This document shows, in pieces, positions 52,681 to 61,239 of a DNA stretch of 64,000 bases. Both the position numbers and the translations under genes were made by a program. Below the pieces are notes generated by a model. That model was not told where the DNA came from. It worked only from the letters and a program-made list of their open reading frames with translations, and did no database searches. Origin of the DNA: Escherichia coli (lineage in GTDB: Bacteria; Pseudomonadota; Gammaproteobacteria; Enterobacterales; Enterobacteriaceae); the NCBI RefSeq assembly GCF_001677475.2, contig NZ_CP015229.1. One strand, given 5' to 3'. Every line of letters begins with the position of its first letter. Within the stretch, counting starts at the first letter, position 1.

Positions 52681-53469
52681 TCAGGATACTTCTTGCTCAG
52701 CAACCACCAGTTCAACATTCTCTTCACTTAACAACTGGCAGAAAGAATTGGGAGGCGGGGCATCAGTAAAAAAAGCCCTGACATTCCGTGCATTGCCAAT
52801 TGAAACGGCAGCAGACGCGGCAAACTTCGTATGATCGGCCACTAACAATGTATTCCGCGCATGTTTAATCATCGTTCTTGCGACTAACGCTTCATTGACA
52901 TCAAATTCCAGTAGGGTGCCGTCATGTTCAATGGCACCTATACTGGTGATTAAATAATCTGCGCGGAAGCCTTCAATAAAATCCACGGCTCCTGGGCCGA
53001 TAATCCCGCCGTTATGAGCGCGTAAAGTGCCTCCCGGCACCATCACTTCAATATCCTGATTCTTATAAAGAATCTGTGCCACACGTAGGCTGTTAGTGAT
53101 AATGCGTAAATCACGACGGTTGAGTAATGCCCTGGCAACGGCTTCTACGGTTGTACCGATGGTGATAAAGACGGTACAGCGTTCGGGAAGGTAATCGGCG
53201 ACTGCCTCAGCGATCGCCCGTTTCTCGGCGGTGAGCGAAAGTTCCCGTTGCTCAAAAGCGGTATTCATGACGCTGGAGACGCGCCCGGCCCCTCCATGAT
53301 GACGGGTGATCAACCCCTGCTCACTGAGTTTTCGGATATCCCGGCGCACGGTTTGCGTTGAAACATCCAGCAGTTGTGCCAGTTCTTCAATATTCATATA
53401 ACCGCGTTCTGCGATTAGATGAACGAGTTGGTCATGGCGTGGATTACCTGTCACTTCGATGATACTCAT
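52681..53469 (-). CDS. DeoR-family transcriptional repressor (YihW/CsqR-like)
   Basis: 262 aa; N-terminal HTH (IEELAQLLDVSTQTVRRDIRKL) and sugar-phosphate-binding C-terminal domain; homologous but not identical to K-12 YihW as I recall it. Confidence 0.85.
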   Translation of the reverse strand: MSIIEVTGNPRHDQLVHLIAERGYMNIEELAQLLDVSTQTVRRDIRKLSEQGLITRHHGGAGRVSSVMNTAFEQRELSLTAEKRAIAEAVADYLPERCTVFITIGTTVEAVARALLNRRDLRIITNSLRVAQILYKNQDIEVMVPGGTLRAHNGGIIGPGAVDFIEGFRADYLITSIGAIEHDGTLLEFDVNEALVARTMIKHARNTLLVADHTKFAASAAVSIGNARNVRAFFTDAPPPNSFCQLLSEENVELVVAEQEVS

Positions 53470-53508: not shown

Positions 53509-54405
53509 TTACGCATAAAGTGACAAAAATGATTCGGTTTGCTCACGATTAGGAATGCCGGCCCGACCGCCAGGCTGGGTACATTTCATCGCGGCAACCG
53601 CACTGGCAAAACGAATAGCCTCTTTTGTTGGCATTTTTTCTGCCAACGCTACCGCGAGTGCGCCGTGAAAAACATCGCCTGCTCCAGTGGTATCAACCAC
53701 ATTGACAGAAAATGCCTCCTGTTGACACAAATGATCATCTTCAATCCACAACGATCCTTCAGAACCCAGCGTAACATACACTTTACCTGCTGTTTGTGTC
53801 GTTGCCTGGAACAAACCTTCTTCAGGTGACTGCAGGCCAGTCATGCGTTTCAGCCCCGGTGTTGAGAACACGGCGTGATCGGCAAGCGCGACAAGTGGAG
53901 AAATATCCTGCGGTGTCATATCGGCGTCTAAAAGCGTTGTCACCCCCGCAAGGCGCGCTAGCGAGAATGCTTTTTCAGTACCGCTATGCCAGCGAACATC
54001 GGCCAGAATCAGATCATAACGAGAGAAATCGATCGCTTCTAACCATTCGGCATCAGTACCGAGATCGGGACTTGGATAATTAACGATAATCCGTTCGCCA
54101 TGCTGATCAACGAGGATCGCTGATTGCGACGAACGGGCGTTAGGATATCGGCGGCAAAATGCGGTATTGACGCCCCAACCCTCAAGTTCTGCAAGTAAGG
54201 TATTTCCACAACTGTCATCGCCGACGCGACCGATGAAATCAACCTCCACGCCAAGCTTTGCGATTGCAACAGCGGCTGTTGCTGCCGGGCCGCCACCAAT
54301 CTCAAGATAATGATTTGCCTGATATTTCCCGCCGCCATCCGGCAGAGTGAGCAAAGAATAAATCCTGTCCTGAACTGTGATACCCACGCATGCAATTTTT
54401 GTCAT
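53509..54405 (-). CDS. PfkB-family sugar kinase (YihV-like)
   Basis: Start at [16 protein letters not shown]; [11 protein letters not shown] and [12 protein letters not shown] motifs; ORF track extends to 54456. Confidence 0.85.
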
Positions 54406-54577
54406 ATTTGTCTTGTCCTGTTTAATTTTGTCGTCTTTGGTCAATTTAAATGACACAAATGATCAAATTAGTGATGTGTGTCGTGTTTTTGAACATAAAT
54501 TACAAATATGCTCAAAAACAGACGAAAACGAATTTTCAATTGTCATTATTTTGTCAATGTCAGACAGGAGAGTATTC

Positions 54578-55456
54578 ATGGCAACCATTGCATTTCTCGG
54601 GCTGGGGCAGATGGGTAGCCCAATGGCTAACAATCTATTGCGAAAAGGGCATTCATTGCAGGTATTTGATGTCAATGCACAGGCCGTCGATGCGCTAGTT
54701 ACGCAGGGGGCCACTGCGGCACAAACCCCAGCGGAAGCGGCAGCAGGCGCTGAATTTATCATCACTATGCTTCCCAATGGTGACATTGTTCGACAGGTTC
54801 TGTTGGGGGAAAAAGGCGTCTGTGAGGCTGTTTCATCTGACGCGTTATTGATTGATATGTCGACTATTCATCCCTTACAGACCGATGCATTAATACGGGA
54901 GTTACAAGAAAAAGGCATCAGTATGATGGACGCCCCCGTGGGCAGAACATCCGTGAATGCGATTGATGGCACATTGCTGATTTTAGCGGGTGGCACTGAT
55001 GAGCAGATTGCGCGTGCACGCCCGATTCTCATGTGCATGGGTAATGAGCTGGTCGAGGCTGGCGGCCCAGGAATGGGGATCCGCGTGAAGCTAATTAACA
55101 ACTATATGAGCATTGCGCTTAATGCGCTGTCCTCCGAGGCCGCTGTGTTATGTGAGTCACTGGGATTAAATCTTGATGTCGCAATTAAGGTGATGAGTGG
55201 TACGGCAGCAGGGAAAGGACATTTTACGACCACCTGGCCTGGCAAAGTGCTGAAAGGCGATCTTTCACCCGCCTTCATGGTGGATCTGGCGTTGAAAGAT
55301 CTGCGTATTGCAGTTGACGTCGCTCGGGAGACGGGGGCACCGCTCAATATGGGGATTGCAGCAGAAAGTTATTACGCCGCAGCAAGTCAAGACGGCAAAG
55401 GGCGGCAGGACTGGAGCGCCCTGCTAAATCAGGTTCGCCAGCAGGCTGGTCTTTAA
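54578..55456 (+). CDS. NAD-dependent beta-hydroxyacid dehydrogenase-family reductase (YihU-like)
   Basis: Start at [20 protein letters not shown] (Rossmann GLGQMG) with RBS caggagag upstream; about 292 aa. Confidence 0.85.
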
Positions 55457-56400: not shown

Positions 56401-57411
56401 ATGGATAAAAGTACCCAGGTTTTATTTTCAGATATTGGGAAAGTCACCACTCAATATGTTGAAGTACCACACCAGGAACTTAAACCGCACGAAGTGCGGA
56501 TTGCGCCTGTGTTCTATGGGATATGCGGTTCGGATCTGCATGTTCTGAAAGGCGGTCATCCGTTTGCCAAACCACCTGTCGTCCCCGGTCATGAAATTGC
56601 AGCGCGCGTTGCGGAAGTTGGCAGCGACGTTAAAAATGTACAGCCGGGCGATCATGTTGTGGTCGATCCCATCATGGCTTGCATGGAATGCCGAGCCTGC
56701 AAAGCAGGACGTTTTAATCTTTGTGAACCACCGCAGGTTGCTGGTTTTCGCGCACCGGGCTTTGCTCGCTCACAACACATTGTTCCTGCGCGTAATTGCC
56801 ATGTCGCACCAGCCTCTTTACCGCTAAAAGTGTTAGCCTTTGCCGAACCGGCGGCTTGTGCTCGTCACTGCGTTAACCGAATGCCGAAAGCTTCTCTGGA
56901 AAGCGTACTGGTGATTGGTGCCGGAACGATAGGCTTATCCATCGTGCAGGCACTGCGCATTATGGGGGCAGGTAAGATTACCGTGATTGAACCTGACGCT
57001 GCCAAACGCGCGCTGGCGTTAAAGCTGGGCGCAGCAGAAGTTTGGGCACCAGGTGAGCTGGCCGCAGATGTGCGATTTACGGGGGCGATTGATGTCGTTG
57101 CAGCGCAGGCCACGCTTAACGATGCATGTACCCGTGTATATGCCGGAGGCACCGTCGTGTGCATGGGCGTACCAAGTGGGCCGCGTGAAATACCATTACC
57201 TATGATGCAACGTTTCGAGCGTGACTTGCTCAACTCTGGCATGTACATCCCTGAAGATTTCGATGCTGTTATCGAATGGCTGGCGGATGGGCGGTTTGAT
57301 ACCAGTGAACTGGTTACCGATTTATTTGCCATTGAGGATGCAGCGGCGGCATTCGAACGCGCGCAGCAAAATGACTCCATAAAGGTCATGCTGCAATTTG
57401 CGCCGGAATGA
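56401..57411 (+). CDS. Zinc-dependent medium-chain dehydrogenase/reductase
   Basis: 336 aa; catalytic-zinc GHE motif (PVVPGHEIAARV), four-cysteine structural zinc cluster (CMECRACKAGRFNLC), Rossmann VIGAGTIGL. Confidence 0.85.
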   Translation: MDKSTQVLFSDIGKVTTQYVEVPHQELKPHEVRIAPVFYGICGSDLHVLKGGHPFAKPPVVPGHEIAARVAEVGSDVKNVQPGDHVVVDPIMACMECRACKAGRFNLCEPPQVAGFRAPGFARSQHIVPARNCHVAPASLPLKVLAFAEPAACARHCVNRMPKASLESVLVIGAGTIGLSIVQALRIMGAGKITVIEPDAAKRALALKLGAAEVWAPGELAADVRFTGAIDVVAAQATLNDACTRVYAGGTVVCMGVPSGPREIPLPMMQRFERDLLNSGMYIPEDFDAVIEWLADGRFDTSELVTDLFAIEDAAAAFERAQQNDSIKVMLQFAPE

Positions 57412-57480
57412 TTTTCTAAATCTCTGTCTGGCGCTGCGTCACGTCAGCGCCACCCTACAACAATTAAAAAGGACACTGCG

Positions 57481-58914
57481 ATGAGTCAAATCACCAGTCC
57501 TGCAACTTATTCAATTAGTCGGCCACAGGACGTAATTGATATTGTTAATAAGAACTCTGCAATCAACACCAGTATCGGCGTTATTTTTATTGCTTTGGGC
57601 GGCATATTGATTGATGCCTACCAGGCGGCGATGGTGGGGTTTGGTAATAAATACATTGCCGCTCAATTCGGCATTTCGCCGGGTCTTGCTGCAACCGTCA
57701 ATGCATCAGTATTAATCGCCGCGTTAATTGGCGGTTTATTAGCGAACCGAGTAATAAACCGCTTTGGGCAAAAGCGGGCATTTATTATTGGCATGGGGCT
57801 GTGCACCATCGGTGCTGCAGCGGTAGCTATTGCTCCCAGTATCTGGTGGGTGCTGGTGTGCCGCGTCATCATGGGCTTTGGTTTAGGCATCGACTTCCCT
57901 TTGGCAACCAATGCCGTGGCAGAGCTTCGTGGTTCAACGTCGAAGAAAACCGGAACGTCGGTCAACCTCTGGCAAATGGCCTGGTATGTTTCGACAACCG
58001 TTGTTTATTTGGTGCTTTTGCCGCTGCTTCTGTCGGGTATCGCTGAAGAACAATTGTGGCGTTACGGAATATTCATCGGAGCTATTTTTGCAGTCATCTT
58101 CATGATTTTGCGTTACTTCTTTATTGGTGAATCCGCAATGTGGGCTGCACGCGTCGGGCGTTACCAGGAAGCGTGCGACATTCTGGGAAAACGTTATGGT
58201 GTTCAGGCTCGCGTTGCGGCATCGGGTACAACAGAAGCGAAATTCTCGGAAAAAGCAGAGAATAAATACAGTGGTGGATATGGCATCTTATTTAATGATC
58301 GTTACCGCAAACGCACCATTCTTGGTTGTGTCGTGGCAACCATGCAGGCGTGGCAATATAACGCCGTAGGTGTTTATCTTCCTCTTACGTTGGCGGGAAT
58401 AATAAGTGGCGGGCTTACTGGCGCGTTGACCGGTTCTGCCGTCGTGAATGCCCTTTGTGGGGTGACAGGTGGGATGATCGGCTCGTTTATTCTCCAACGA
58501 CTGGGTACTCGCCGACAGTCGATGTATGGATTTGCTGTTGTGACCTTAGCATTGCTGTCGTTAGGCGCACTGGCAACGACTAATCCCTGGCTGTCTTTAG
58601 GGTTATTGGGATCAATTATTTTCTTCCATTCAGCGGGTCCTGGTGGGCTGGGCATGACCATTGCCACACTCTCTTATCCTCCCGCTATTCGTCCTACTGG
58701 GGTCGGATTTGCCCGCGCTATTATGCGCACAGGGGCAATTGCAGGACTCATTTTCTGGCCGATGCTGTGGGGTACGTTGAAAACTGAAGCGTTTTATTGG
58801 TTGGCAATTGTGCCATTCCTGGGGTTCCTGACCTGCGTATTGATTAATTGGGAACCTTTGGGAGCAAATGTTGATGCTGAGGATGCAGAGGTTCTGGCTG
58901 AATTGAAGAAATAA
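57481..58914 (+). CDS. MFS transporter, subfamily unclear
   Basis: 477 aa polytopic membrane protein with a central hydrophilic loop. Confidence 0.8.
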   Translation: MSQITSPATYSISRPQDVIDIVNKNSAINTSIGVIFIALGGILIDAYQAAMVGFGNKYIAAQFGISPGLAATVNASVLIAALIGGLLANRVINRFGQKRAFIIGMGLCTIGAAAVAIAPSIWWVLVCRVIMGFGLGIDFPLATNAVAELRGSTSKKTGTSVNLWQMAWYVSTTVVYLVLLPLLLSGIAEEQLWRYGIFIGAIFAVIFMILRYFFIGESAMWAARVGRYQEACDILGKRYGVQARVAASGTTEAKFSEKAENKYSGGYGILFNDRYRKRTILGCVVATMQAWQYNAVGVYLPLTLAGIISGGLTGALTGSAVVNALCGVTGGMIGSFILQRLGTRRQSMYGFAVVTLALLSLGALATTNPWLSLGLLGSIIFFHSAGPGGLGMTIATLSYPPAIRPTGVGFARAIMRTGAIAGLIFWPMLWGTLKTEAFYWLAIVPFLGFLTCVLINWEPLGANVDAEDAEVLAELKK

Positions 58915-58951
58915 ATTAATGCGCATCGGCTTAAACCGATGCGCATTAATT
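58914..58951. repeat. 16-bp perfect inverted repeat (stem-loop or operator)
   Basis: aattaatgcgcatcgg cttaaa ccgatgcgcattaatt, starting at the stop codon of the upstream transporter gene. Confidence 0.8.
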
Positions 58952-59012
58952 CAAACTGCCCACGTTTAGTGGTTCGTATCCCAGATTTCTCGCCTACCAG
59001 GAGAGGAAAATT

Positions 59013-60362
59013 ATGTCTGAAAAGTTACCCGCACCGCGTGAAGGGCTTTCCGGTAAAGCCATGAGACGTGTCGTTATGGGCAGTTTCGCAGGCGCGTTAA
59101 TGGAATGGTATGACTTCTTTATTTTTGGCACGGCAGCAGGACTGGTATTTGCACCGCTGTTTTATCCAGACAGCGATCCTTTTATAGGTCTTATAGCTTC
59201 CTTTGCGACCTTTGGTGTCGGTTTTCTGACTCGTCCTTTAGGTGGCATCGTCTTTGGTCATTTTGGCGATAAAATCGGGCGAAAAATAACACTTATCTGG
59301 ACGCTGGCTATTGTCGGTTGCTCCACATTTTTGATTGGTTTTATTCCGACGTATCAGGAAATTGGCATTTGGGCACCGCTTGTATTAATGGTGCTGCGTT
59401 TGATTCAGGGCTTTGGTCTTGGTGGCGAGTACGGCGGAGCGGCATTGATGACCATAGAATCAGCGCCCGAATCCCGACGCGGATTTTTAGGTTCACTCCC
59501 GCAAACGGCTGCGTCTGTGGGTATTATGCTGGCAACCGGTATTTTTGCTCTCTGTAACCATTTTCTTACTTCGGAGCAGTTTCTCTCCTGGGGATGGCGC
59601 ATTCCGTTTTGGCTTTCTGCGGTGATGTTGATCGTTGGGCTGTTTATCCGCCTGCATACCGAAGAAACGCTGGATTTTCAAAAGCAAAAAACGACGAATA
59701 ATAAAGAAAAGTCCGTTCCTCCGTTGATTGAATTATTCAAAAAACATCCACGAAATATTTTATTGGCACTGGGTGCGAGGCTGGCGGAAAGTGTCTCCTC
59801 TAATATTATTAACGCCTTTGGTATTGTCTATATTTCCAGCCAATTAGCATTGTCGCGAGATATTCCCCTGACGGGTATGTTGATTGCCTCGGCGATCGGT
59901 ATTTTCAGTTGTCCATTGGTTGGATGGTTATCAGATCGTATAGGTCAAAAAAGTCTGTATTTGTCGGGAGCAGGATTTTGTGTCCTGTTCGCGTTTCCTT
60001 TCTTCTTATTACTGGATAGCAAAAGTACGCTCATCATCTGGTGCAGTATGATCCTCGGCTACAACTTAGGTCCGACGATGATGTTTGCCGTGCAGCCAAC
60101 ACTTTTCACCCGCATGTTCGGTACCAAAGTACGATATACCGGCCTTTCTTTTGCTTATCAATTTTCCGCGATTCTTGGCGGACTAAGCCCCCTTATCGCC
60201 TCAAGTTTGCTGGCGCTAGGGGGAGGAAAACCGTGGTATGTCGCTCTGTTTTTATTTGCTGTCTCAGTTCTTTCCTTTGTTTGCGTCTGGCTGATTGAGC
60301 CGACCGATGAACAAGAAACCGCTTCTTACCGCTACATCAGGGAACAATCTCATGAAAACTGA
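59013..60362 (+). CDS. MFS transporter of metabolite:H+ symporter type (ProP/KgtP/ShiA-like)
   Basis: 449 aa; WYDFFIFG and GLGGEYGGAALM signature segments. Confidence 0.8.
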   Translation: MSEKLPAPREGLSGKAMRRVVMGSFAGALMEWYDFFIFGTAAGLVFAPLFYPDSDPFIGLIASFATFGVGFLTRPLGGIVFGHFGDKIGRKITLIWTLAIVGCSTFLIGFIPTYQEIGIWAPLVLMVLRLIQGFGLGGEYGGAALMTIESAPESRRGFLGSLPQTAASVGIMLATGIFALCNHFLTSEQFLSWGWRIPFWLSAVMLIVGLFIRLHTEETLDFQKQKTTNNKEKSVPPLIELFKKHPRNILLALGARLAESVSSNIINAFGIVYISSQLALSRDIPLTGMLIASAIGIFSCPLVGWLSDRIGQKSLYLSGAGFCVLFAFPFFLLLDSKSTLIIWCSMILGYNLGPTMMFAVQPTLFTRMFGTKVRYTGLSFAYQFSAILGGLSPLIASSLLALGGGKPWYVALFLFAVSVLSFVCVWLIEPTDEQETASYRYIREQSHEN

Positions 60363-61239
60363 ACGAAAAAACGAGCATTACCTGGCGCTACAACAGGCGT
60401 TTGACGCGCCATGGCCTGGGCCTGTAGGAGAGTTAGTGACGCTGGAAAAAGGCAATATTCACCTGCAGATTTATCCGCATGATGGTGCCAGGATAACCTC
60501 GTTAAAGGCATTTGGTTCTGAAGTATTACGCCAATGGCAGCCGCAGCGCAGAGCTTTTCAGTATGGCTGTTTCCCAATGGTGCCGTGGGCAGGGCGACTG
60601 GGGAATGCGACGCTGAATGCTGGTGGGCAATGTTATTCTTTACCCGCCAATAAACCACCACATGCGTTGCATGGTATGGCTTGTTACTCAACGTGGGAAA
60701 TCATCGACAAAACAATAGATTCCCTGACTTTACGTATGCCCCTGGCTTCACCGTGGCCCTGGCAAGGGGAAGTGATTCAGACTTTTTTGCTGGAGAACGA
60801 TGCGCTGGTTTTGCAACTGGAAATCCATTCACATACCGATACATTCCCGGCCTCTGCAGGCTGGCATCCGTGGTTTGCGAAAAAGCTGACTCCGCAAAAT
60901 ACAGAATCGTTGCAGGTGCTTTTTGATGCGGACTGGCAAGAGGAAGCGGGTAGTGATGAACTGCCAACTGGAAATCGCATCTCTCCTCAAGCTGGTCCCT
61001 GGGATGACTGTTTTGGTTTTTATGACGGGGTGAAGGTTAAGTTACTGTGGCCTGGTAAACTCACGATGACCATGACCTCTTCTGCAAACAGTCTGGTGGT
61101 ATTTGATAAACAGCCCGATGCCACCTGTGTTAATCCGCTTACTCAGGCACCTAACGCAATAAATCTAACGCCGGAATTGGTGACATCAGATAAGCCGCTG
61201 GTCATCGAAACTCGTTGGCAATTTACACCTGAATCTTAA
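60352..61239 (+). CDS. Aldose 1-epimerase family protein (YihR-like mutarotase)
   Basis: Start at MKTERKNEHYLALQQAFD, overlapping the upstream transporter stop by 11 nt; ORF track starts at 60295. Confidence 0.75.
   Translation: MKTERKNEHYLALQQAFDAPWPGPVGELVTLEKGNIHLQIYPHDGARITSLKAFGSEVLRQWQPQRRAFQYGCFPMVPWAGRLGNATLNAGGQCYSLPANKPPHALHGMACYSTWEIIDKTIDSLTLRMPLASPWPWQGEVIQTFLLENDALVLQLEIHSHTDTFPASAGWHPWFAKKLTPQNTESLQVLFDADWQEEAGSDELPTGNRISPQAGPWDDCFGFYDGVKVKLLWPGKLTMTMTSSANSLVVFDKQPDATCVNPLTQAPNAINLTPELVTSDKPLVIETRWQFTPES

Follow-up and report, generated by a model that had tools for sequence, protein, structure and literature searches.

A probable bidirectional promoter-operator region in the short (Nissle-type) yih cassette of Escherichia coli and a comparative map of its candidate YihW sites

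The kinase and reductase genes of the yih cassette studied here diverge from a common spacer, next to a gene for a regulator of the DeoR family, which raises the question of where on this spacer the regulator acts and how its sites are arranged relative to the two promoters. We addressed this question in a stretch of 64,000 nt of E. coli DNA (the window). As a preliminary description of the locus had correctly stated, the yihV/yihU intergenic spacer is A/T-rich and 172 bp long (54406-54577; 30% G+C compared with 51% for the whole window). Its limits are two start codons, that of the kinase (ATG at 54405, minus strand) and that of the reductase (ATG at 54578, plus strand), and the flanking features are as follows.

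52681-53469, minus strand: yihW, a DeoR/GlpR-family regulator (best NCBIfam match) and orthologue of K-12 CsqR
53509-54405, minus strand: yihV-like PfkB sugar kinase of 298 aa, ATG at 54405, same start in RefSeq
54566-54570, plus strand: Shine-Dalgarno sequence AGGAG of yihU, read directly from the sequence
54578-55456, plus strand: yihU, sulfolactaldehyde 3-reductase (NCBIfam equivalog NF012005, 580 bits against a cutoff of 348)

The kinase is 66-67% identical to the K-12 sulfofructose kinase YihV in an alignment that begins at residue 1. A longer GTG-initiated kinase ORF that appears in a mechanical ORF list does not correspond to the annotated gene. The regulator gene, annotated likewise by RefSeq in strain 1190, lies downstream of the kinase, and yihU is followed by genes for an aldolase, a Zn-dependent dehydrogenase and an MFS transporter. 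Gene identities and synteny, taken from the ORFs, NCBIfam, the RefSeq annotation of an identical cassette and tblastn at 73 loci, identify the locus as a yih cassette, in which a yihV-type kinase and a yihU-type reductase diverge and the DeoR-family gene yihW adjoins the kinase. The 3.8 kb around the spacer match E. coli chromosomes at up to 99%. This version of the cassette is present in about 1,326 of 5,426 complete E. coli genomes, i.e. about a quarter, including Nissle 1917 and many ExPEC strains; the remaining genomes carry the K-12 version, at 60-80% identity. The short cassette of Nissle 1917 belongs to the same allele family as that of the window, and its yihU/yihV spacer is essentially the same, with a single base difference at 54477. 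In our view the spacer is likely to serve the E. coli 'short' (Nissle-type) yih cassette as its bidirectional promoter-operator region.

Control of the K-12 yihU/yihV region by CsqR and CRP was reportedly described by Shimada in 2019, in work that is said to include a DNase footprint of the CsqR region. The accessible literature, which excludes this footprint paper, states no operator consensus for CsqR, and we found no yihW deletion data for the short cassette type in it. The K-12 region is also treated in Kaznadzey 2018, Sharma 2021 and Gao 2021, the last by ChIP-exo. According to papers that cite the original gSELEX, gel shift, AFM and reporter experiments, K-12 CsqR represses the genes on both sides of the yihU/V spacer, to which it binds cooperatively; polymerisation of CsqR along the K-12 probe was seen by gel shift and AFM (PMC8006165).

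Binding of YihW to the spacer analysed here is already known, since it has been published for this allele bar one base. Nissle YihW and K-12 CsqR both bind the Nissle yihU/V fragment by EMSA, and sulfoquinovose partly dissociates both complexes (PMC12608037, Kaznadzey et al. 2025). The binding experiment that the preliminary description had proposed has thus been carried out, and its central claim, that the spacer contains operators through which the adjacent DeoR-family regulator acts on both divergent genes, holds in outline, but not for several of the individual features that it had put forward. In the same study, the yihV/W region was also bound by YihW, and the yihU/V fragment was not dissected into sites (PMC12608037). 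Overall, the YihW of the window and K-12 CsqR share 71% identity, and residues 1-63, the DNA-binding domain with its winged helix-turn-helix, are nearly identical in the two proteins, so both should read the same motif. This near-identity agrees with the published cross-binding, in which each regulator also recognises the fragment from the other strain. Unlike the K-12 cassette, the short cassette in Nissle is not induced by sulfoquinovose in vivo, and its YihW binds more weakly at 37 °C (PMC12608037), which leaves the regulatory importance of the spacer in vivo uncertain.

To compare spacers, we gathered 79 Enterobacterales loci with the two regulators, YihW and CsqR, as query; the genes for kinase, reductase and accessory proteins were located by tblastn, which yielded 73 distinct spacers between kinase and reductase. 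These fall into three groups: the ADH type, which includes the window and accompanies the Zn-dehydrogenase (E. coli, Citrobacter, Phytobacter, Erwinia typographi, Trabulsiella and the distant Budvicia and Leminorella); the K-12 type, found in cassettes with the isomerase yihS; and a third type in Yersinia, Serratia, Hafnia and Chimaeribacter. Conservation within the ADH-type clade was counted over nine spacers. The K-12 region has the same flanking genes as the window (kinase then yihW on one side, yihU then aldolase on the other), and a core of about 45 bp, the -10 blocks and a GTGA-N6-TC motif are homologous in the two, whereas the flanks of the core cannot be aligned. The elements that emerged from this comparison are listed in order along the spacer, followed by one in the kinase gene.

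54408-54417, plus strand: TTGTC copies 1 and 2 in the kinase leader, overlapping the complement of the kinase Shine-Dalgarno sequence
54428-54432, plus strand: TTGTC copy 3, at about +5 to +10 of the predicted kinase transcript (6.2 bits in the PWM scan)
54448-54443, minus strand: predicted kinase -10 TAAATT, assigned by homology (54443-54451 with the overlapping ATTTAAAT), predicted start about 54436-54438
54451-54465, plus strand: AAATGACAcAAATGATCA, containing the best TGACA-type element (54451-54455) and TGATCA one helical turn on
54470-54485: CRP-like site AGTGA-TGTGTG-TCGTG, centre 54477.5, with conserved GTGA-N6-TC
54486-54518: dyad core TTTTTGAACATA-AATTACAAA-TATGCTCAAAAA, 12-nt arms matching at 11/12 positions
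54493-54531: orthologue of the strongest K-12 YihW/CsqR ChIP-exo peak, mapped through the K-12/window alignment
54507-54512, plus strand: predicted yihU -10 TATGCT in the right arm of the dyad, start near 54517-54519
54540-54562, plus strand: TTGTCAT-tatt-TTGTCAA-TGTCAG, comprising TTGTC copies 4 and 5 (11-bp period) and a third TGTCA
53521-53525, minus strand: TGTCA element in the kinase 3' end, in the yihW promoter region (TTTTTGTCAC), recognised by codon conservation

A scan of the spacer for canonical sigma-70 promoters found no -35/-10 pair, as expected for activator-dependent promoters, and the promoter assignments therefore rest on homology to the mapped K-12 starts and on conserved -10 blocks. 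On the kinase side, a CATTTTAAT block (TAAAAT on the kinase strand) is nearly invariant in the 73 spacers, and the window aligns there with ATTTAAAT (54444-54451), the E. coli short-cassette variant of this block with one extra base. In K-12, transcription starts map to -25/-27 for yihV and -62/-63 for yihU (PMC5816610). Because the K-12 CATTTTAAT block lies 5-7 nt upstream of the yihV start, we read it, together with its ATTTAAAT counterpart, as the putative kinase -10. The preliminary description had counted ATTTAAAT, as an 8-bp palindrome, among the candidate operator features. The palindrome is indeed present at 54444, but one of this length occurs in 67% of shuffles, so it is unremarkable in itself; it is confined to the E. 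coli allele, with relatives carrying CATTTTAAT, and we discarded it as an operator in view of its alignment to the -10 block. On the other side, T1, A2 and T6 of a TAYGMT hexamer are invariant in the 73 spacers, and the K-12 yihU start maps 5-6 nt downstream of it; TATGCT would then be the yihU -10 of the window.

Between the two predicted promoters lies the CRP-like site. Its GTGA and TC are nearly invariant across the 73 spacers while the N6 varies, and Budvicia and Leminorella have a perfect TCAC half, a pattern consistent with CRP. In the allele of the window, the match to TGTGA-N6-TCACA is weak (4/5 plus 2/5), and the right half is weaker than that of K-12. CRP binds the K-12 yihU/V fragment (PMC5816610). 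The centre of the site is about 40 bp from both predicted starts, which are transferred from K-12, and the mapped K-12 starts give the same symmetric geometry around GTGA-N6-TC. From this geometry we infer that a single CRP site may act as a class II site, for which a centre near -41.5 is expected, for both divergent promoters in this allele as well. The CRP-like site had been absent from the earlier list of features.

The most conserved part of the spacer is adjacent. The preliminary description had noted an imperfect inverted repeat at 54489-54515, and this repeat, TTGAACATA-N9-TATGCTCAA, is present with arms matching at 8/9 positions. A repeat of this quality is found in 33% of shuffles; it is, however, the inner part of a longer conserved dyad with the 12-nt arms TTTTTGAACATA and TATGCTCAAAAA, which extends further with one bulge. 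Folded as single-stranded DNA, the dyad has a z of -4.2, equalled by none of 200 shuffles. From about -23 to +22 around 54502, the core is nearly invariant in the 73 spacers, from Escherichia to Yersinia and Pantoea, with the consensus TGTCAATTTTTTGACCATAAATTACAAATACGATCAAAAACAGACA. Positions ±5, 6, 8 and 10-16 are both conserved and symmetric in this set, which gives the dyad TTTTTGAnCnTA-AATTACAAA-TAnGnTCAAAAA with its N9 centre. We found no compensatory covariation in the dyad across the 73 spacers, in which variable positions change independently. In the ADH-type spacers outside E. coli, three central bases of the left arm are free (GAA, AAT, CGT, AGT and others) whereas their right-arm counterparts are fixed within the clade, presumably because the right arm doubles as the yihU -10.

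In vivo data from K-12 fall on the same core. The strongest K-12 YihW ChIP-exo peak lies at 4071641-4071681 of U00096.2 with a signal/noise of 168 (PMC8464067 supplement, Gao et al. 2021). We confirmed U00096.2 as the coordinate system by the positions of yihV, glpA and ssuE. The peak corresponds to positions 81-121 of the K-12 spacer, and the pairwise alignment of the K-12 and window spacers is an ungapped conserved block at the core. Mapped in this way, the peak spans -9 to +31, i.e. the loop and right arm of the dyad; it lies off the dyad axis, with the left arm outside it, and the TGACA pair described below is also outside. We put the chances that the dyad core is the primary YihW site in the short cassette at about even. 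The K-12 core also contains a 16-bp tandem repeat (CGATAAATTACAAATA / CGATCAAAAACAGACA) that matches at 12/16 positions, compared with about 7/16 in the window.

Several operators, cooperative binding and co-regulation by CRP are features of GlpR at the divergent glpTQ-glpACB genes and of DeoR at deoCABD, and the GlpR operators are 20-bp palindromes of WATGTTCGWT. Like these systems, the yih spacer combines a DeoR-family repressor with multiple candidate operators and divergent or complex promoters, and among curated families that of GlpR stands closest to YihW. The operators differ in sequence and in layout. Within the dyad, TATGTTCAAA and TATGCTCAAA match the GlpR half-site at 8/10 and 7/10 positions, respectively, but these arms stand back to back and point outwards, 9 bp apart. 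A GlpR operator of glpA also carries a secondary ChIP-exo signal of CsqR (PMC8464067). We regard the GlpR-like arms and the glpA signal as a lead rather than as a test.

The preliminary description had further emphasised at least five TTGTC pentamers. Exactly five are present in the spacer, at 54408, 54413, 54428, 54540 and 54551 (the first two one base off the 54409 and 54414 given there), all on the plus strand and none on the minus strand. Five or more copies on one strand have a P of ~5e-4 in 20,000 dinucleotide-preserving shuffles of the spacer, and in the same shuffles the P for any pentamer of at least three letters reaching five copies is ~0.03. The enrichment of TTGTC in the spacer is thus real but modest.

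A wider view came from counting all hexamers, with no prior choice of motif, in 15 representative spacers and in dinucleotide-preserving shuffles. The most enriched hexamer was CAGGAG, the Shine-Dalgarno sequence; apart from it, ATGACA/TGTCAT was the top repeated hexamer, with 23 occurrences against 3.6 expected, and AATGAC and AAATGA ranked next, which together give an element of an A-tract plus TGACA. In K-12-type and third-type spacers, two such TGACA elements occur just upstream of the yihU Shine-Dalgarno sequence, spaced by 10-11 bp, with distances of +41 and +51 to the core. A PWM trained exclusively on sites from K-12-type and other non-ADH spacers was then run over the window spacer. 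Six positions scored 6 bits or more, where shuffles would give 0.3, and TTGTC copies 2 to 5 are among them. The top score, 13.7 bits, went to AAATGACAcAAATGATCA, between the kinase -10 and the CRP-like site; copies 4 (54541) and 5 (54552) reached 8.6 and 9.0 bits as hits on the minus strand. Weaker hits were at 54439, 54414 (copy 2, 6.4 bits) and 54429 (copy 3), and an additional TGTC at 54479 scored 5.9 bits; copy 1 (core 54409) was not among the listed hits.

Conservation within the ADH-type clade separates these elements. TGACA at 54451 is at the same position in eight of the nine spacers, and none of the nine departs from TTGT at 54540-54543; among the TGACA-type hits, only those at 54451 and 54552 are conserved in the clade. 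Copy 5 is retained only in E. coli and Citrobacter; in Phytobacter, Erwinia and Trabulsiella, the right-hand sites have degenerated to TTGCTCA or TTACCAC. Copy 3 is partially conserved, with TGTC retained in most of the nine. Around copies 1 and 2, which lie between the kinase Shine-Dalgarno sequence (complement TCCT at 54416-54419, plus strand) and the ATG, conservation is limited to TGT and TCC. Of the features singled out in the preliminary description, the inverted repeat and TTGTC copies 4 and 5 are retained as candidate sites, copies 1 and 2 are poorly conserved and placed over the kinase Shine-Dalgarno sequence and leader, and ATTTAAAT drops out.

The layout of the elements also differs between cassette types. 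K-12 has TGACA-N5-TGACA upstream of yihU on the kinase-sense strand, and K-12-type spacers have N5/6. In the window, the arrangement at an equal distance from the core is TTGTCAT-N4-TTGTCAA, read on the yihU-sense strand and placed in the yihU leader shortly before the Shine-Dalgarno sequence of that gene; a TGACA/TGATCA pair beside the kinase -10 is present in addition and has no counterpart in K-12. The pair is thus on opposite strands in the window and in K-12-type spacers, and in Chimaeribacter the two elements face each other. The opposite orientation of the right-hand pair is unexpected for a strictly oriented half-site. A further TGTCA lies outside the spacer, in the kinase 3' end within the region of the autoregulated yihW promoter. 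The Ser codon of TTTTTGTCAC is TCA in 58 of 60 orthologues and the codon before it always ends in TG, while a neighbouring Ser is usually encoded by TCT; this pattern argues for selection on TGTCA at the DNA level. When the core arms (TTTTT-N3-CAT) are set beside the TGTCA elements (TTTTTGTCAT), the spacing differs by one base, so that we could not bring the two under one motif.

These observations leave room for other readings of the same spacer. The TTGTC/TGTCA direct repeats might themselves be the primary YihW operators, with the core conserved only for its CRP site, -10 and start. The rank of TGACA/TGTCAT as the most enriched repeated word across clades would fit such a role, as would the 10-11 bp spacing of the pair, which is expected for head-to-tail winged-helix proteins, the TGTCA that codon choice preserves in a second YihW target, the yihW promoter, and the enrichment of TTGTC in the spacer itself. 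However, the K-12 ChIP-exo peak sits on the core and not on the TGACA pair at +41/+51, and across genera no change is seen in the bases that separate the -35 and -10 positions, an invariance that exceeds the needs of a promoter and points to a bound protein. In addition, three of the five TTGTC copies lack the trailing A, two overlap the kinase Shine-Dalgarno sequence, and conservation of TTGTC within the ADH clade is poor. We hold this reading to be improbable. At the other extreme, the pentamers might have no regulatory role and be by-products of T-rich leaders, of the Shine-Dalgarno complement and of composition, such that only the core and the CRP site matter. The location of copies 1 and 2 between Shine-Dalgarno sequence and ATG and their variability in relatives, the P of only ~0.03 once all pentamers are considered, and the decay of the right-hand sites in three genera agree with this. 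It is difficult to reconcile with the near-invariant positions of TTGT at 54540-54543 and TGACA at 54451, with a TGACA pair retained at the equivalent place in K-12-type spacers of dozens of genera, and with PWM hits far above shuffles and codon-level conservation in the yihW promoter. We think it unlikely that all pentamers are incidental, and the chance that YihW contacts copies 4 and 5 in particular appears to us slightly less than even.

A second regulator might instead read the TGTCA repeats, with TTGTCAT-TATT-TTGTCAA (54540-54557) as a Pho box or another site of the OmpR/PhoB type. The Pho box consensus CTGTCATAWAWCTGTCAY consists of 7-bp direct repeats of the type CTGTCAT separated by a 4-bp A/T spacer, with an 11-bp period; the sequence of the window has the same layout of repeats, spacer and period, and matches the consensus at 13 of 18 positions. 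However, a usable -10 is missing at the required distance of about 10 bp downstream. The Shine-Dalgarno sequence and the ATG follow directly, the latter after 21 bp, so transcription would begin within the ORF, and the scan gave no sigma-70-like promoter. Moreover, the K-12-type pair occupies the opposite strand and has a period of 10 bp, and both repeats are intact only in E. coli. For want of a downstream -10 we rejected the Pho box, and we give a site of this kind very little credence. The IHF consensus WATCAANNNNTTR was compared by eye with the sequence at GATCAA and does not fit. Structured RNA was considered as well: an Rfam scan of 54200-54800 at E <= 1 returned a single chance snoRNA match below threshold, and in folding, the predicted leader RNA of yihU does not stand out from shuffled sequences (z = 0.05), on which grounds we rejected a riboswitch or leader structure in the spacer.

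With the dyad core as the candidate main site, we propose a working model in which two promoters stand back to back, the kinase-yihW unit being transcribed leftwards and the yihU-aldolase unit rightwards. Both would lack good -35 hexamers and share the central CRP-like site (54477.5). YihW would most likely have its main site on the dyad core at 54486-54518, possibly reaching TGTC at 54479 and GACG at 54521. Because the dyad core overlaps the predicted yihU -10 and start, a bound repressor would exclude RNA polymerase from the yihU promoter. The flanking elements of A-tract plus TGACA are probably auxiliary sites of lower affinity, which may nucleate or extend a cooperative oligomer of the CsqR type: one at 54451 beside the kinase -10, those at 54541 and 54552 in the yihU leader, and weaker TGTC motifs in the kinase leader. 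By oligomerising along the DNA, the repressor could shut the kinase promoter too, and occupation of 54451-54455 and of TGATCA one turn away would cover the stretch of this promoter that runs from its -10 to the CRP-like site. CRP and repressor may compete for the shared central site or cooperate at it. The identity of the half-sites and the assignment of sites to promoters follow from comparison with K-12 and other genera and should be read as predictions. We consider this overall picture, with two back-to-back promoters, a shared CRP-like site and YihW on the core and flanking elements, to be probable.

Since binding of the regulator has been published for this allele, the finding of an operator region in the spacer itself adds little. 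The comparative site map is new detail and not a new phenomenon; what it contributes beyond the accessible papers is the core dyad on the predicted yihU -10, the equidistant CRP-like site and the auxiliary TGACA elements. This map could guide footprinting and mutagenesis, and it could help to account for the lack of response of the short cassette to sulfoquinovose.

The gene content of the cassette bears on the same point. The Nissle cassette has been described as yihTUVW only (PMC12608037), whereas four more genes follow in the window, for the Zn-dehydrogenase, two MFS transporters and an aldose 1-epimerase. These extra genes are syntenic in Citrobacter, Phytobacter, Trabulsiella and Erwinia, which, together with the lack of induction by sulfoquinovose, suggests a distinct substrate and inducer. 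We tentatively put forward the joint reading, possible though doubtful at present, that the Nissle-type cassette encodes a distinct pathway, made up of the kinase, the aldolase, the YihU-type reductase and the products of the four extra genes, and not a decayed sulfoquinovose one, that its control has been rewired, and that its inducer is a compound other than sulfoquinovose. The rewiring may have kept the core dyad while the auxiliary TGACA elements were flipped to the other strand and multiplied in E. coli, where the TTGTC array and the new pair on the kinase -10 may be the rewired elements. If true, a different inducer would explain the silence of the cassette on sulfoquinovose.

We examined the 3' end of the yihV-like kinase gene, which precedes yihW, the gene for the DeoR/GlpR-family regulator orthologous to CsqR of K-12, and found a short motif there:

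53521-53525, minus strand: TGTCA (within TTTTTGTCAC), 3' end of the kinase gene

The motif lies between the likely -35 and -10 elements of the yihW promoter, and the conserved -10-like element, GTATAAAAT or GCGTAAAAT, includes the kinase stop codon. The serine codon in the motif is TCA in 58/60 orthologues, and the leucine or methionine codon that precedes it always ends in TG. Judged from these codons, TGTCA appears to be kept in place by codon choice.

In the divergent spacer between the kinase gene and yihU, a further element was placed with respect to the two predicted transcription starts:

54470-54485: single CRP-like site, ~40 bp from both predicted divergent starts

Either promoter could therefore use this one site in a class II arrangement, and the mapped starts of K-12 yihU and yihV show the same symmetric geometry as those predicted in the window. 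Within E. coli, none of the 5,426 complete genomes searched matched the 3.8-kb segment 52600-56400 at an identity above 99.1%, and position 54477 is T in the window, whereas it is C in Nissle 1917 and in strain 1190.

Among relatives, the yihU-like gene adjoins the yihW-like regulator gene without an intervening kinase in the Enterobacteriaceae MAG UBA5654 and in Citrobacter sp. NCU1, the latter carrying a second, 55% identical DeoR gene beside Zn-dehydrogenase and MFS homologues; these loci are further rearranged cassette variants. In Serratia sp. Ag1, Hafnia paralvei and Serratia microhaemolytica, added sequence, which in the last of these includes short tandem repeats, enlarges the kinase-side part of the spacer to 276-351 bp, while its conserved core and reductase side are intact.

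Secondary YihW/CsqR peaks have been reported in K-12 by ChIP-exo, one upstream of glpA, adjoining the GlpR-type half-site AAAACGAAC, and another upstream of ssuE, which functions in the use of sulfur from sulfonates, with low signal/noise values of 14 and 8, respectively (PMC8464067). These peaks may mean that the specificity of YihW/CsqR resembles that of GlpR, or that the regulator is connected with sulfonate metabolism.

The "short" yih cassette has been described as yihTUVW (PMC12608037). Downstream of these genes, the window carries four further co-oriented genes (56401-61239), which K-12 lacks:

56401-57411: Zn-dehydrogenase
57481-58914: first MFS gene
59013-60362: second MFS gene
ending at 61239: aldose 1-epimerase ORF

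Synteny of the Zn-dehydrogenase gene and the first of the MFS genes extends to Citrobacter, Phytobacter, Trabulsiella, Erwinia typographi and Enterobacter sp. 10-1, and distant versions occur in Budvicia and Leminorella. Neither the yihS isomerase gene nor the yihQ sulfoquinovosidase gene is present in the window's short cassette. The short cassette, together with these extra genes, appears to form a pathway of its own, not one that has been truncated.
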